Assembly: GCA_013329055.1 (NCBI GenBank)
Contig: DUKY01000020.1
Location: forward strand, 54,989 to 118,988
Length of the DNA stretch: 64,000 nt
Direction of reading: 5' to 3'
From: Nanobdellota archaeon
Lineage (GTDB): Archaea > Nanobdellota > Nanobdellia > Pacearchaeales > GW2011-AR1
Part shown: positions 2,905 through 34,597 of the stretch, in pieces
Numbering within the stretch: the first letter of the stretch is position 1
How the letters are laid out: each line of letters begins with the position of its first letter
Translations under genes and position numbers: made by a program
The notes under the pieces: generated by a model
Told to the model about the DNA's origin: nothing
Seen by the model: the letters and a program-made list of their open reading frames with translations, nothing else
Database searches by the model: none

Positions 2905-4554
2905 TTAATTTTTTGCAATTCTTATTGCTACAATTACAATAACAATAACCAGGATTATATTAAGTAAGATAATTGCCCATAATACCCAGTTTATTTTGCC
3001 AGTAATTGATTTCATTTGATCAACAAATCCTTTATCAGCTTCTTTAATTAAAACTGATACTGGTTGTTGTGAAATTAATTGGTTATTTGATAAAATTTCA
3101 AGATTAAACATTTGATCTCCAAATGCTTCTTTGTTTACATCGAATGTTATTAATACTTCTTTAACTTCGCCTTTATTTAATGTGAATGTATTTTGATCTA
3201 TGCTTGCACTTGATGCCCATGCAGTATATCCTGCTGTATTTAATGTATATGTTGTTGATTCTTCACCAGTATTTGCAATTATTGCTTTAATTATTAATTC
3301 TTCTCCTGCTTTTCCATCAGATACTAAACTTGCTGAAACTGTTACTTTTGCATCTGCTTTACAAACTCCAGTTACTTCAATATTTGTGCTGAATTCTGCT
3401 TCGTCATCTCCAAAATTATTTTGATAAACATCTTGGTCTTCATCATAAACAAACATTGTAATTTGATAAGTTTTTTGTTCCATTTCTTTAGTTGTTTCTA
3501 ATGTTACTTCAATTTTTTCAGAATCAAATGCGTCAATACTTCCAACAATTACTTCTTGTGCAATTCCTAATTCTTTATTATAGAAATATACTGATACATC
3601 ATCCTGGTCTTCATCACCAATGTTCCATACTTCTGCGATAATTGTGATTTTCTCGTCACATAACATTGTTTCTGGTGCTTGAATATTGTAAAGGATTACA
3701 AAATTTTCTTCAATTACGATTTCAATATCTTCTTGAGTTGTGTAAGTACATGTATCATCATTATCAAATTCTGCGTCTTCTGCATTTGCCCAAAGGTATA
3801 ATACATATTCTCCTTCTTCTAATTCGTCAATATTGTCATCTAATTTGATTGTTACTATTACTGTTTCTTCATCGCCGTCTTTAAGTTTAAATTTGCTTTC
3901 ATCTCCGTCAACATACCATTCATTTGTTGCTTTATTATATAATCCCCATGATAATTTAATGTCTCTGATATCATCATTTCCGTTGTTTTCAATTTGAACT
4001 TCTACTTGAATTTCATCCATTGGCAACCATTCAGTGTCTTCTCCAAATCCTTTTACTGTTATGTCGTCAATTTTAACTTTTAGGTTATTTCCTAAGTTTG
4101 TTTTTGCAATACAACTTGTAATTTCTTCAGGTTGAATTGGGTTTGTTACTGTTAATGTGATTGGTAAAGTATCAGTTACTGTTAGATTTGTGTTAGAATT
4201 ATTTGCTGTTACTATTAAAGTACCTGTATAATTTTGTGCTGTTGTTCCTTCCGGAACATTGATGGTTAATGTTATTAGTGAACTTTTATTTGTTTGATCT
4301 AATGAAGTAATTGTTCCATTAATATTATTTGATGTTAATGAACCTAATGATAATGGTGTGTTAAATGAGATATTTGTTAAATCTCCTTCATTAGTTTCAT
4401 TTAATTTGAATGTAACTGTTGCAGTGTTTCCTGAAACAATAGATTGTGTTGCACCTGTTACATCTGTAAATTCAATTGATGCAGATGTGAAACTTATACA
4501 TAGAATTAATACTAAGATGCTTGCACTTACAAAATTTAAGATTTTGTTATTCAT
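2905..4554 (-). CDS. secreted surface protein with CARDB/Ig-like repeats and a C-terminal TM anchor
   Basis: It has an N-terminal signal-like segment (ILNFVSASILVLILCISFTSA). It has T/N-rich beta-type regions and CARDB-like segments (VWNIGDEDQDDVSVYFYN, VQIENNGNDDIRDIKLSW). The C-terminal helix is WVLWAIILLNIILVIVIVIVAI. Confidence 0.7.
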   Translation of the reverse strand: MNNKILNFVSASILVLILCISFTSASIEFTDVTGATQSIVSGNTATVTFKLNETNEGDLTNISFNTPLSLGSLTSNNINGTITSLDQTNKSSLITLTINVPEGTTAQNYTGTLIVTANNSNTNLTVTDTLPITLTVTNPIQPEEITSCIAKTNLGNNLKVKIDDITVKGFGEDTEWLPMDEIQVEVQIENNGNDDIRDIKLSWGLYNKATNEWYVDGDESKFKLKDGDEETVIVTIKLDDNIDELEEGEYVLYLWANAEDAEFDNDDTCTYTTQEDIEIVIEENFVILYNIQAPETMLCDEKITIIAEVWNIGDEDQDDVSVYFYNKELGIAQEVIVGSIDAFDSEKIEVTLETTKEMEQKTYQITMFVYDEDQDVYQNNFGDDEAEFSTNIEVTGVCKADAKVTVSASLVSDGKAGEELIIKAIIANTGEESTTYTLNTAGYTAWASSASIDQNTFTLNKGEVKEVLITFDVNKEAFGDQMFNLEILSNNQLISQQPVSVLIKEADKGFVDQMKSITGKINWVLWAIILLNIILVIVIVIVAIRIAKN

Positions 4555-25985: not shown

Positions 25986-26326
25986 ATGGCATTCAAGGAA
26001 CCAAGGGGTTCACATTCCATGTGGCATTACAGGAGGCTCCGAAAGTTTACACGAGTTTTCATGATAGCCCTTGATACGAGTGTGGACTTGAGTAGAAAGT
26101 TTACACGAGTTCTCATGATAGCCCCTGATACGAGTGGGTTTGAGTTTAGAGATGCCCCCGTTCCGCAAAGTTTGAGGACGAAGTTATTGAACAGCGACAA
26201 ACATTTTAAATGAATAACGACTTTTCAATGACTGAGCCAGCTTAAAAACTTCAAAAGTATCGTCTTTTGAATGTCCCAGAAAATTTAATTCTACAAATTT
26301 TCTGAGGAAACCAGCGGGTGTCTTTT
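25986..26326 (-). repeat. family-C ~340-bp structured repeat, copy 1 (reverse complement of copy 2 at 44669-45010)
   Basis: The reverse complement begins aaaagacacccgctggtttcctcagaaaattt..., directly abutting the stop of the 26325..26510 gene. About 170 nt are near-identical to copy 2, followed by two tandem units built on gtgtaaactttctactcaagtccacac. Confidence 0.85.
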
Positions 26327-28697: not shown

Positions 28698-28858
28698 GGC
28701 TTAAAAAATTTAAAGAATTATATAAATCTTAGTTTGTTTTTTTAAGTGGTGAAATAGTTTAAAAATGTAAAATTTTGAATTAAGGATAACTAAGAGAGTG
28801 AAAAAATTGATTCTTTTAATGCATATATGCTTAAATAATAGAATGCCAAGATTATTTT

Positions 28859-29257
28859 ATGGCAGAGCATTTGGACTATATACAAAATGCAATCAATCGT
28901 ATGGCAAATAATTCTTTTTTAATTAAAGGTTGGGCTATAACCTTCATATCGTTACTATTTATTCTTTCTGTAAAAGAGTCAAATATTTGGTATTTGATTT
29001 TAACATTTTTACCTCTATTCTGTTTTTGGGGATTAGATGCTTACTATTTAAGACAGGAAAAGTTATTTAGAAAATTATATGACCTTGTAAGAAAAGGCAA
29101 AGTAAAAGAACCATTTACAATGAACACCAAACCATTAAGAAAATATGTTCCAAGTTGGTTTGTGACTTTATTTAATTCAACAATTGTAGGATTATATTTC
29201 ACAATAATATTATTAAACTTGATTCTTATCTTGCTTTTATCATGGGGGATCATATAA
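28859..29257 (+). CDS. small 3-TM membrane protein (first gene of the TIR-like cassette)
   Basis: The hydrophobic helices are WAITFISLLFILSV, WYLILTFLPLFCFWGL and IVGLYFTIILLNLILILLLSW. A TATA-like gcttaaataata lies about 25 nt upstream. The stop codon overlaps the next start (TAATG). Confidence 0.6.
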   Translation: MAEHLDYIQNAINRMANNSFLIKGWAITFISLLFILSVKESNIWYLILTFLPLFCFWGLDAYYLRQEKLFRKLYDLVRKGKVKEPFTMNTKPLRKYVPSWFVTLFNSTIVGLYFTIILLNLILILLLSWGII

Positions 29258-29745
29258 TGGTAAGGAGAGTATTTTTTAGTTTTCATTTTGATAACGATGT
29301 TATGAGAGTTCAATTAGTAAGAAATATGGGTGCCTTAGAGGGTAATGAACCTATATCTGTGAATGATTGGGAAACGGTAAAGAGGGGAGAAGAACCATCT
29401 ATTAAGAGGTGGATTGAAAATACTATGAAAGATTGTGATTGTATTATTGTTTTAATTGGTTCAGAAACTGCAAACCGACCTTGGGTTGATTATGAGATTA
29501 GAAAAGCTTGGGAAATGAAGAAAGGAATTTTAGGGATATATATACATAACTTACCATGTCCAAGAACAGGAAAAAGTCACAAAGGACTAAACCCTTTTGA
29601 CAAAATATTTTTTACAGATGGAACTCCCTTATCTTCAAAAATAAAATGTTATGACCCAAATCCTTTAGATGCTTATAACGATATAAAAACTGGAATTCAG
29701 AGAATTGTTGAATTAGCAATACAAGAAGCAAAGCAAAGAAATTAG
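29257..29745 (+). CDS. TIR-like domain protein (DUF1863 / MTH538-type)
   Basis: RVFFSFHFDND is the beta1 motif, and CDCIIVLIGSETANRPWVDYEIRKAWE contains the conserved W-x-x-E. The ATG at 29257 overlaps the upstream TAA. The ORF track offers 29242 as an alternative start. Confidence 0.7.
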   Translation: MVRRVFFSFHFDNDVMRVQLVRNMGALEGNEPISVNDWETVKRGEEPSIKRWIENTMKDCDCIIVLIGSETANRPWVDYEIRKAWEMKKGILGIYIHNLPCPRTGKSHKGLNPFDKIFFTDGTPLSSKIKCYDPNPLDAYNDIKTGIQRIVELAIQEAKQRN

Positions 29746-29779
29746 ATATTTTTATTAAGTTTGCCTTAGTCAGTTTTTT

Positions 29780-30382
29780 ATGATAAGTTTTGATAGTATC
29801 TACGAAAATATTATTGCAGAAATAGTTGTATTCTTATTATCTCTTTTCCTATCAAAATTTTTGCCTACTTTGTTTAATAAAGAAGAAAATATAAATAAAG
29901 ACAAGGTATTTGATATGTTGAAATTAGTTATTTTTTTAACATCTATTTCAATCCTTAATTTAATATTAAATATCAGTTTTTGGGATAAACAAGAATTAAC
30001 TGTCCTATTCACTCTGCTCTCTATAGGATTTGGAATATCTTTGGTTTATGTTTATAATAATCAATGTCCTGCGTGTAAAAGGTTTATTAAAGCAAAGAAA
30101 AGAATTGATGAGAAAATTATTAAAGAATTTATTAAAGAAATCCCATATCAACCAATGAAAGTTTGGAAATATTCTAATGGAAAGATTAAGAAAAAAGAAC
30201 CATTTGGTGATAAAAAAACAAGGACTGAAAAATGGCAAACTAAGCAAGAATTTTATGAGTGTAATCATTGCAAACACCAATGGGATTCGGGGCATGTTGA
30301 TACCCCCGTATTTATAGAAAATGAATCTCACAAGGTAATAAGCACAAATGAAAAAGATCCAGATGAACCATCAATTTATTAG
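29780..30382 (+). CDS. membrane protein (about 3 TM) with a C-terminal CxxC...CxxC zinc-ribbon
   Basis: The TM stretches are IIAEIVVFLLSLFLSKFL, LVIFLTSISILNLILNI and LFTLLSIGFGISLVYVY. The zinc-ribbon cysteines are in CPACKRF...CNHCKHQW. It lies 34 nt downstream of the TIR-like gene. Confidence 0.5.
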   Translation: MISFDSIYENIIAEIVVFLLSLFLSKFLPTLFNKEENINKDKVFDMLKLVIFLTSISILNLILNISFWDKQELTVLFTLLSIGFGISLVYVYNNQCPACKRFIKAKKRIDEKIIKEFIKEIPYQPMKVWKYSNGKIKKKEPFGDKKTRTEKWQTKQEFYECNHCKHQWDSGHVDTPVFIENESHKVISTNEKDPDEPSIY

Positions 30383-30487: not shown

Positions 30488-31252
30488 ATGAAAAATAAAA
30501 AAATCGATAAGACTTTAGAATTTGCTATAATTGCTGAAGAAATTTATAGGAATCAACAGGGGGTTGATTTAGGTGAAGTACATTATTGTTTTGAGGGTTT
30601 ATATGGTATGAAAGGAGAATCTGGGATGGTTTTACCTTCAAAAGAAGTATTGGAATCTGTTCTTAAAAGAGATTGGTTTTCTTTGAAAGATAAAATCTTT
30701 TATACTTCACAAGGGGATGAAGTTATAAGTAAGAATGATAGTTTTATGCAAAAACCTGTGATGTTTTTGCCATGGAATGATCATGGAAAAGTTGTTGTTG
30801 TGCATGAATTGTCTCATGTTGGTTTTATGAAATTATGGCATTTTAATTATACTCTTGATGAAAGAGATGAGGGTTATAATGCTTTGAAAATTCATATTAC
30901 TCTTGATGAGGGTGTTGGGATGAAAATACCTGAATTAGAAGTTTTTAGCAAATATTATTCTAATGAAGAAATGCAAGAGGTTAGGGATACTCAATTGGAA
31001 TATAATGAAAGTAATGAATCATCTTATTTTATTGGTTCTTTAAATGCATGGAAAAATAATATTGGTGATAAATCTGGTAGAATTGATTTTAATAATGGTG
31101 TATGCTTTTATTATGTTGGTAATAATTTTATCCAAAATGTTTGGCAAGAAAAAGATACTTTGGCATCAATAGTTACTCGGCTTAGAGATAATACTCCGAG
31201 TGAAGATGAAATTTTAAATCCTGAGAAATATTTAGTAAGATTAAAAATTTAA
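30488..31252 (+). CDS. hypothetical protein with an HExxH motif (putative metallopeptidase-like)
   Basis: The motif is VVVHELSHVGF. I prefer the ATG at 30488 to the TTG at 30476 because ttttataaata is centred about 28 nt upstream of 30488. Confidence 0.45.
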   Translation: MKNKKIDKTLEFAIIAEEIYRNQQGVDLGEVHYCFEGLYGMKGESGMVLPSKEVLESVLKRDWFSLKDKIFYTSQGDEVISKNDSFMQKPVMFLPWNDHGKVVVVHELSHVGFMKLWHFNYTLDERDEGYNALKIHITLDEGVGMKIPELEVFSKYYSNEEMQEVRDTQLEYNESNESSYFIGSLNAWKNNIGDKSGRIDFNNGVCFYYVGNNFIQNVWQEKDTLASIVTRLRDNTPSEDEILNPEKYLVRLKI

Positions 31253-31524
31253 AAGTGTAAAATTTTGAAATTTTTGACGTCTTGATATTTTTCTGGTTTT
31301 ATTTCAATATTCCTTATTTGAGCGTGTTTTGGTCCTTTTTGGCATAATTCAATCATTTTGTTTACGTCATTTGCATCTCCTTCTGCGAATATTTCAATTC
31401 TTCCGTCTTCTAAGTTTCGTGTAAATCCTTTTATGTTTAATCTTTCAGCTTGTTCTTTTATAAAATCTCTAAAAAAAACTCCCTGAACTGTTCCTGTTAT
31501 ATATATTCTTACTGATTTTTTCAT
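31249..31524 (-). CDS. acyP: acylphosphatase
   Basis: The motif is VRIYITGTVQGVFFRDFIKEQAERLNIKGFTRNLEDGRIEIFAEG, and the protein is 91 aa. Confidence 0.85.
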   Translation of the reverse strand: MKKSVRIYITGTVQGVFFRDFIKEQAERLNIKGFTRNLEDGRIEIFAEGDANDVNKMIELCQKGPKHAQIRNIEIKPEKYQDVKNFKILHF

Positions 31525-33385: not shown

Positions 33386-34597
33386 TTACTTCATATGTGC
33401 CAAAATATCGCCAAAGATTAAATTCTGCTGTGCTCTATATTTCCTCACTGCAAGGCCGATGGTCTGCTCGTTCGAGAAGGCTTTATTCATCCTTTTTCCC
33501 TCACTGTTAGTGCCGAATCCGGCATAGTATGCCCATGTTCCGGTGTCCATGAACGCCTGCGGCCAACAGCAGTAATCGGTCCTGTTCATTGGCGATTTGA
33601 TTATCAAGTCCCCGCAAGAAAAGCCTGACATGAACAGTGCGGGTGCACCATTTTCTCTTGCGAACTCAAGGTACTCGTCAATAGTAGACCAGTAAGGCTG
33701 AGTATGTTTTGCTGATAGGAACGCTGGACCGCCAAGCCTTTCAAGCTGTTGTTTACCAATGATGCTCAGGGACATATCTCTTCCGGTGGTATCATCCCCG
33801 TGGATGCTGAAGTGCATAGCGAGGTGCTTCTTTTTCAGCTTATCGGTAACCTTCTGGTATTCGGTGTTATAGACATATTCCTGCGGCATGTCATAACCGA
33901 GACCCTCCTTCGGGTCCGCAAGACCTATGTACTTTCCATTTTCACTTCCCTCGTAGTCAGTTAAGTGAAGGGCAGTTCTGGGATACTTCTTCATGTAACT
34001 TTCAAAGTTGTTGTGGTAGTCTGTGTAGGTCTCCATCGTCTTGAGGATGAAGCTAACCTTTTCAGGATCAGTATAGGCGAATGGTGGCATTATTGATGAG
34101 ATTGCTATGTCACTGCACCTGCAACAGCCACAGTCCTCGTCCACACACTCCATTTTCCAGTATATTGCCGCAAGGCTTTCCCAGTTTGTTGCATTGACCC
34201 CGCTTGCTGTCGGCAGGTCATCTCCTATCAGGATTATATAGGCAACATTGTCATCCATGTATAAATCATCAACGAATTTGTCTAATTCATCTATTGTCTT
34301 CCCTGGAAACTTTTTCAGCCCTGCATTCTCGATGTTTAGGTCCTTCTTTACAGATGTGAAATATTTCGAAACCGATGAAGCGACATCATCAGTATCATAA
34401 ATTCCGCCTTTTGAAACAATAATTGTCACTCTATCCTTTTCCACATTCACAGAACAATAGCAGGGATGCTCTGGAGATACAATGGAAGTAATCCAACATA
34501 CAGTGAAGCTTGCTTGTGAGAAAACCAGCATTATGGTTATAACGATGATTATGGCAACCCAAAATTTTTTTCTTTTGAGCAATTCTGGGATTTTCAT
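33386..34597 (-). CDS. membrane-anchored clan-CD (caspase/gingipain-fold)-like cysteine peptidase
   Basis: It has an N-terminal TM. A candidate His-Cys dyad follows hydrophobic strands: LAMHFSIHGDD and ALFMSGFSCGDL, about 60 residues apart. The fold assignment was made by eye. Confidence 0.45.
   Translation of the reverse strand: MKIPELLKRKKFWVAIIIVITIMLVFSQASFTVCWITSIVSPEHPCYCSVNVEKDRVTIIVSKGGIYDTDDVASSVSKYFTSVKKDLNIENAGLKKFPGKTIDELDKFVDDLYMDDNVAYIILIGDDLPTASGVNATNWESLAAIYWKMECVDEDCGCCRCSDIAISSIMPPFAYTDPEKVSFILKTMETYTDYHNNFESYMKKYPRTALHLTDYEGSENGKYIGLADPKEGLGYDMPQEYVYNTEYQKVTDKLKKKHLAMHFSIHGDDTTGRDMSLSIIGKQQLERLGGPAFLSAKHTQPYWSTIDEYLEFARENGAPALFMSGFSCGDLIIKSPMNRTDYCCWPQAFMDTGTWAYYAGFGTNSEGKRMNKAFSNEQTIGLAVRKYRAQQNLIFGDILAHMK

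Follow-up and report, generated by a model that had tools for sequence, protein, structure and literature searches.

The DNA stretch under study (the window) comprises 64,000 nucleotides (nt) of contig DUKY01000020.1 (assembly GCA_013329055.1) from a DPANN-type Nanobdellota archaeon, for which no culture exists and the sole source of sequence is a metagenome-assembled genome. Between rnhA and acyP lies an islet of four genes, the first two of which encode a small membrane protein (gene 1) and a TIR protein (gene 2). These two genes very probably form a two-gene type V Thoeris system (thsF-thsB) carried on a horizontally acquired islet of approximately 2.5 kb at acyP. The original prediction, made from the window alone, had seen in genes 1 to 3 an undescribed three-gene TIR-based immune module. 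The features of the locus are as follows.

28859 to 29257, plus strand: thsF (gene 1), 132 amino acids (aa), match to PADLOC PDC-M50A, probable three-transmembrane (3-TM) effector of type V Thoeris.
29257 to 29745, plus strand: thsB (gene 2), 162 aa, TIR protein of the ThsB/DUF1863 type with catalytic Glu E80.
29780 to 30382, plus strand: g3 (gene 3), 200 aa, three TM helices and a four-Cys zinc ribbon.
30488 to 31252, plus strand: g4 (gene 4), 254-aa orphan with a HELSH (HExxH) motif.
31249 to 31524, minus strand: acyP, acylphosphatase Pfam match of 7.8e-26.
28753 to 28779: copy 1 of an att-like direct repeat, whose reverse complement reads FKILHF plus stop, a duplicate of the acyP 3' end.
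31243 to 31269: copy 2 of the direct repeat, the true acyP 3' end (last six codons and stop).
28822 to 28838, plus strand: promoter-like element CATATATGCTTAAATAA, found at the same offset upstream of thsF in the comparison loci L103, L006, L007 and L005.

The open reading frames of the original prediction are present where it had placed them, as are the overlap at TAATG, the motifs of the TIR protein, its neighbours' hydrophobic helices and the Cys pairs CPAC/CNHC of gene 3. The setting among housekeeping genes holds as well: the flanking genes are LysRS, RNase H (rnhA), acylphosphatase (acyP) and arginase, with the islet between rnhA and acyP. The TAA of thsF (29255-29257) and the ATG of thsB (29257-29259) have one base in common; the two genes are translationally coupled (TAATG), and gene 3 follows thsB after a gap of 34 nt. 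Independent gene calls on contig DUFO01000008.1 (GCA_013331835.1) and in dozens of metagenome assemblies have identical coordinates, including the start of thsB, and gene 4 is also called, as 254 aa, on DUFO01000008.1.

Gene 2 matches ThsB_TIR in Pfam (PF08937, 5e-25) and otherwise only TIR_2, the PADLOC models ThsB (3.9e-67) and PDC-M50B (4.6e-56), and the PDB entries 8wcf (4e-54) and 6lhy/9b7d (B. cereus ThsB (BcThsB), approximately 5e-17). It carries the motifs RVFFSFHFDND and IIVLIGSETANRPWVDYEIRKA, and the second TIR motif confirmed alongside RVFFSFHFDND is NRPWVDYEIRKA. In the alignments to BcThsB and 8wcf, NRPWVDYEI of thsB lies over NRRWVRYEI, which places the conserved catalytic Glu at E80. 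The TIR/DUF1863 identity proposed earlier for gene 2 is therefore confirmed by the Pfam, PADLOC and PDB matches and by the retained Glu. A nucleoside 2-deoxyribosyltransferase identity (PF05014/PF15891) was also considered and is not borne out: ThsB_TIR and TIR_2 are the only families matched in Pfam, and the neighbourhoods vary, with links to defence or mobile elements. The Pfam scan shows a TIR domain alone, with no further sensor domain apparent. Among the closest bacterial relatives of gene 2, at approximately 60% identity, are proteins of Vibrio, Yersinia, Parabacteroides and Chryseobacterium, and this level of identity between an archaeal and bacterial ThsBs indicates horizontal transfer. 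In Parabacteroides, Chryseobacterium and Yersinia, ThsBs of approximately 60% identity adjoin a SIR2-SLOG (SIR2-STALD) ThsA in type I Thoeris loci. Gene 2 is also 52-58% identical to the TIRs entered as "DUF2270 - Type V" partners in Table S1 of the preprint that describes type V Thoeris (Yirmiya et al., bioRxiv 10.64898/2025.12.03.692087, Dec 2025). The occurrence of gene-2-type ThsBs in type I loci points to effector swapping, as expected of a signal-producing TIR, with a signal of the 3'cADPR type (a cyclic ADP-ribose isomer) being the most probable.

Type V Thoeris consists of a TIR protein and ThsF, a three-TM protein labelled DUF2270. Two type V Bacillus operons, one of B. thuringiensis DAR 81934 and the other of Bacillus sp. 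1NLA3E, are reported to provide phage defence, and these validated systems function as two genes. Infection-dependent synthesis of 3'cADPR is reported as well, with toxicity specific to 3'cADPR only when the ThsF-containing operon is present; this holds for the B. thuringiensis system and less clearly for 1NLA3E. The AlphaFold 3 (AF3) model of ThsF is a channel-like, ring-shaped homo-heptamer with positively charged pockets between the protomers (10.64898/2025.12.03.692087). Because the DUF2270 profile (PF10028) was sub-threshold on gene 1 and its family, homology of gene 1 to the B. thuringiensis effector was tested directly. A protein 100% identical to the Table S1 ThsB of the validated DAR 81934 system was recovered by protein search (P0240), and the gene directly downstream of that ThsB, beside a Gabija system, encodes 141 aa. 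That this neighbour is ThsF is consistent with the consecutive IMG gene numbers of TIR and effector in Table S2 of the preprint. Gene 1 is 40% identical to it over the full length (E 4e-32), hhalign of the gene 1 family profile against it gives a probability of 100% (E 1.3e-52), and gene 1 also matches PADLOC PDC-M50A at 4.7e-40. The earlier reading of gene 1 as the membrane effector partner of the TIR is upheld by this homology to the B. thuringiensis effector.

No NCBIfam model matches gene 1, DUF3278 is a sub-threshold Pfam match, and SLATT_6 appears in one of 22 family members (E 0.11), with no Macro hit. The "3TM" effector category of the preprint's Table S1 was considered as well and set aside, as it occurs with other TIR clusters and no link to gene 1 was found. 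The hydrophobic stretches of gene 1 cover residues ~24-38, 43-59 and 108-130, and the AlphaFold2 monomer (predicted local distance difference test score (pLDDT) 92) is entirely helical: a long N-terminal helix runs into TM1, TM2 runs into an invariant FWGLDAYYLRQE(K/R)LFRKLY segment, and TM3 is C-terminal. A Foldseek search of this model against the PDB returned nothing significant (best E 1.1). In the family alignment R14, K23 and R71 are invariant, R65 is nearly so, and R78 is invariant in the closer set; judged from the alignment, these conserved basic residues (R14, K23, R65, R71, R78) would be compatible with a charged pocket.

The pairing of the two genes is conserved well beyond this archaeon. 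The gene 1 family comprises 684 cluster hits, and thsF-like genes are found in at least 246 species-representative genomes, from DPANN, Altiarchaeales and Methanosarcinales archaea to many bacterial phyla (more than 20). When 80 species-level thsF loci were searched with 20 TIR seeds that cover every Thoeris type, 58 of them proved to have a TIR gene no more than 300 nt from thsF, on the same strand in 57, downstream of it in 46 and upstream in 12. The paired TIRs belong to at least 11 clades. A gene-2-like ThsB adjoins thsF in 52 of the 85 loci of an earlier locus set, and among the remaining thsF neighbours are Pfam matches to TIR_2, TIR, CAP12-TIR and SLOG proteins, with one match to Nuc_deoxyrib_tr. 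A one-base overlap or direct abutment of thsF and thsB also occurs in L001, L005, L006, L007 and L103. The neighbourhood comparison proposed with the original prediction thus shows that the pair of gene 1 and gene 2 co-occurs widely. That prediction had also been made to depend on the TIR similarity of gene 2, which is strong, and on what its homologues are linked to, which is defence and not housekeeping genes: their neighbours are type I Thoeris, toxin-antitoxin pairs, Gabija and integrases.

The contexts of the thsF loci are likewise those of defence or mobile DNA, with an integrase in L001, an MmeI-type restriction-modification gene in L005 and a MazEF-like pair after thsB in L006, and the thsF-TIR pair is also present on Terribacillus and Clostridium botulinum plasmids. 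On B. cereus and Priestia plasmids with relatives of the B. thuringiensis ThsB, no small effector was found beside the TIR, and a Klebsiella copy is interrupted by an IS3 element. None of the genes flanking the islet in the window is common to any other thsF-thsB locus compared. In a Vibrio cholerae locus (L086, 3001-3929) a ThsB 63% identical to gene 2 is followed by a 147-aa ThsF-family protein, in reversed order; this pair adjoins ParE/Phd and acetyltransferase cassettes and resembles part of a gene-cassette array, and its effector is annotated neither by Pfam nor by the record. ThsF-like genes were also observed on seven viral contigs of IMG/VR (L105-L111), and phrog_19896, a PHROG without assigned function, is matched at 8.1e-32; the presence of these genes on viral contigs implies that type V effectors are also carried by viruses or proviruses. 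In L103 (GCA_027036435.1, 3798-4636) the ThsF is 85% identical to gene 1, whereas the ThsB is just 40% identical to gene 2 and looks split (146 and 63 aa); a DDE transposase fragment is located immediately upstream. This suggests swapping and decay of the TIR inside one ThsF lineage.

The region upstream of thsF is conserved as well. A TATA-like box, TTAAATAA, lies at 28831-28838, approximately 24 nt before the thsF ATG. Strings of the TTWAWAWA type occur about once per 436 nt in the window (28.6% GC), but the element CATATAT-N(1-3)-TTAAAWA keeps its position in five of six archaeal loci of differing context, which argues that it is more than chance. In those five, whose flanks are unrelated, the element is found at about -34 to -20 relative to thsF (in L103, it was observed at about 3761-3777), and the sixth, L001, retains the TTAAAAA box alone. 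The element is probably a B recognition element (BRE)/TATA promoter that travels with the cassette, and the short distance of the box from the ATG implies a leaderless or very-short-leader mRNA. The TATA-like box placed before gene 1 by the original prediction is therefore present and conserved, although it does not serve all three genes, as set out below for gene 3.

A direct repeat points to how the islet came to lie here. The stretches 28753-28779 and 31243-31269 are identical at 24 of 27 positions, both encode FKILHF plus stop on the minus strand, and they bracket genes 1-4 (thsF, thsB, g3 and g4), roughly 2.5 kb. Among 100 Markov-simulated 4-kb regions none reached 24/27, the maximum being 23. 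The repeat suggests that the islet was inserted at the 3' end of acyP with an att-type duplication. The GC content of the islet equals that of its surroundings and is not distinctive. Neither ARAGORN nor Rfam at gathering score detected a tRNA or other RNA gene anywhere in the 64 kb, so that no integration target of that kind is present in the window.

For genes 1 and 2 this analysis shows homology of the two proteins, conservation of the genes as neighbours and of the promoter region, and the signature of an insertion. If the pair works like its validated Bacillus homologues, ThsB, the stand-alone TIR carrying E80, would sense viral infection and turn NAD+ into an isomer of cyclic ADP-ribose, with 3'cADPR as the most probable one. 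This signal would bind ThsF, a small three-helix membrane protein that would be assembled as a ring-shaped homo-oligomer, and ThsF would then breach or depolarise the membrane, so that the infection is aborted. Both genes would be transcribed from the TATA box carried by the cassette. The identity of the signal, the formation of a pore and the antiviral activity in this host are extrapolated from the Bacillus systems.

Several observations weigh against this identification. PF10028, the profile behind the preprint's ThsF label, is absent from the hmmscan of gene 1 and matches 8 of 59 gene 1 family members weakly (best E 7.2e-4, short of the gathering score). For the validated B. thuringiensis effector, too, Pfam lists no precomputed match, and the DUF2270 label of the preprint probably stems from profile-profile annotation. 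As for mobility, no integrase lies inside the segment bracketed by the repeats, and the exact AcyP protein, used to look for an empty rnhA-acyP site, led to islet-bearing contigs only. Concerning the signal, of the two validated systems one was not activated by added 3'cADPR, and type XI TIRs, which are 47% identical to gene 2, yielded none of the known molecules (10.64898/2025.12.03.692087). Finally, all functional support comes from bacterial type V systems, and the ThsF oligomer is carried over from them, the model built here being that of a monomer.

The alternative that survives best concerns gene 3, which the original prediction had placed with genes 1 and 2 in one cassette behind a single TATA box. 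The protein has three N-terminal hydrophobic helices followed by CPAC (96-99) and CNHC (161-164), with Cys at 96, 99, 161 and 164, and its single-sequence AlphaFold2 model is poor (pLDDT 51.7). The family is small, with 26 cluster representatives among 1.84 billion, and a metagenome scan added one short contig. The four Cys are invariant among its relatives, and three of the 19 aligned (P0377, P0380, P0384) have a C-terminal HNH domain; these HNH-bearing relatives hint at a separate small family of defence or abortive-infection proteins. If gene 3 were integral, the system would have three components, with gene 3 as a second effector or as a sensor/regulator, and its logic would be unlike that of the two-gene type V. 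In favour of this, homologues lie beside thsF-thsB in three non-syntenic DPANN lineages (the window, L006 and L103/L104), adjacency by pure chance is unlikely for so tiny a family, and the HNH nuclease domains of some relatives are typical of defence effectors. The distribution of gene 3 nevertheless argues for the contrary. Of the 80 thsF loci surveyed at species level only L006 carries it, and it is absent from the bacterial and plasmid loci as well as from the close archaeal relatives L001, L005 and L007. Among all fetched loci it was found only in the window, L006, L103/L104 and the short contig L102, where its homologue has no thsF within the following 337 nt. Its position is permuted, being upstream of thsF in L006 and L103/L104 (both DPANN) and downstream of thsB in the window, and in L006 an 80-aa gene and approximately 490 nt separate it from thsF. 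In L103 it is paired with the different, apparently truncated ThsB described above. A TATA-like box of its own lies around -30 to -22, a position that four loci keep, and the validated bacterial systems need just two genes.

The single promoter and the three-gene cassette of the original prediction are not supported in view of this rarity, permuted order and separate promoter-like box, and for the same reasons, together with the homologue in L102, gene 3 is not a core component. Most likely this small membrane/zinc-ribbon gene is independent of the pair and travels in the same islets, probably as a unit of its own or as an accessory that is optional. That it is an integral component is unlikely, and the repeated adjacency in the three non-syntenic DPANN loci gives a modest probability to an accessory role specific to the lineage. 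One form this could take, which we also regard as unlikely, is that in a subset of DPANN type V Thoeris acquired gene 3 as a lineage-specific third component (second membrane effector or sensor/regulator), with thsF-thsB-g3 being an integrase-less cassette that inserts by duplication of a gene 3' end, and the permuted order arising from a circular intermediate.

A further alternative leaves the gene pair as it is and exchanges the roles. ThsB itself could be the effector, killing the cell by using up NAD+ in the manner of the TIRs of CBASS, Pycsar and prokaryotic Argonaute (pAgo) systems, with ThsF anchoring, regulating or neutralising it. Many bacterial TIRs are indeed NADase effectors (10.64898/2025.12.03.692087), and the bare TIR of gene 2 would suit such a role. 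Against it, the homologous validated TIR makes 3'cADPR upon infection, and added 3'cADPR is toxic only with the ThsF operon. ThsBs of the gene 2 type are moreover exchanged among SIR2-SLOG ThsA, a HIT hydrolase and ThsF, as signal producers would be, and ThsF has partners from at least 11 TIR clades, which together make this exchange of roles very improbable. Hardly any credence can be given to a non-defence locus native between rnhA and acyP, for instance an enzyme resembling nucleoside 2-deoxyribosyltransferases together with a membrane partner, for which the LysRS, RNase H, acylphosphatase and arginase flanks, the unremarkable GC and the one Nuc_deoxyrib_tr match of a thsF neighbour elsewhere could be cited, given that the best families of gene 2 are ThsB_TIR and PADLOC ThsB, that the flanks are found at no other thsF-thsB locus, that contexts elsewhere are those of defence or mobile DNA, that the spread over archaea and more than 20 bacterial phyla is patchy with approximately 60% identity between archaeal and Vibrio/Yersinia ThsBs, that the genes lie between att-like copies of the acyP 3' end, and that neither synteny of thsF-thsB with rnhA/acyP across related archaea nor an essential metabolic phenotype was seen.

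Nothing in Pfam, PADLOC, NCBIfam, PHROGs, the PDB or viral contigs matches gene 4, the last gene of the islet. Its HELSH motif is metalloprotease-like, and its stop overlaps that of the convergent acyP. Two other regions of the window stand out by composition. At 33500-34500 the GC content is 0.42-0.49 against a background of approximately 0.28, over an open reading frame of 403 aa (33386 to 34597, minus strand), and this DNA may be foreign. At 25986-26213 it is 0.38, with overlapping open reading frames on both strands and an internal repeat (KFTRVFMIALDTS / KFTRVLMIAPDTS) that indicates duplication of a DNA unit some 60 nt long; tRNA, Rfam and tandem-repeat calls are all absent from this region.

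Identified as type V Thoeris, the thsF-thsB pair would be an intact, probably mobile system in a small-genome archaeon of the DPANN type, and would mean that immunity based on TIR signalling and a membrane effector of minimal size has passed between bacteria and archaea with little sequence change. Given the identities of approximately 60% for ThsB (Vibrio, Yersinia) and 40% for ThsF (Bacillus), ThsF presumably works on archaeal ether-lipid membranes. For annotation, the rule that follows is that ThsF is missed by Pfam and NCBIfam, and that such loci appear as "hypothetical 3-TM protein + TIR".

Compared with known systems, the pair is first of all a match to PDC-M50, one of 145 untested "phage defence candidates" of PADLOC-DB v2 (Payne et al., bioRxiv 10.1101/2024.01.29.577857), as PDC-M50A and PDC-M50B hit adjacent genes at 4.7e-40 and 4.6e-56, respectively. 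PDC-M50 differs in being a bioinformatic candidate with no mechanism, and a literature search for the name gave no match; judging by the shared matches, it is apparently the entity later named type V Thoeris. The module can therefore not be called undescribed, as the original prediction had it, although the absence of SIR2, SLOG and Macro domains noted there stands. Type II Thoeris (TM-Macro ThsC), type VII Thoeris (SLATT ThsH) and the 2TM/4TM Cap effectors of CBASS resemble it in that a nucleotide-derived signal activates an oligomerising membrane killer, but thsF has no Macro or SLATT domain and no fold match in the PDB. With type I Thoeris it has the ThsB clade in common and probably the signal class, but its effector is a small membrane protein and not an NADase, and the type I ThsA is excluded as no SIR2 or SLOG domain was found in the four islet proteins by Pfam, PADLOC or NCBIfam. 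Type V Thoeris is alike in its two-gene operon of a TIR and a three-TM effector of approximately 130-140 aa and in being devoid of SIR2, SLOG and Macro domains. The differences are that the host here is a DPANN-type archaeon while the validated hosts are Bacillus, that the order is thsF-thsB with TAATG instead of thsB-thsF as in B. thuringiensis (the ThsF-first order is the commoner one in the surveyed loci, 45 vs 12), that the ThsB is short (162 aa, DUF1863 type) and from another TIR clade than the 252-aa B. thuringiensis ThsB, and that g3 and g4 are extra genes of this islet. The locus reveals no new kind of system; it is a known kind of system, now in an archaeal host.

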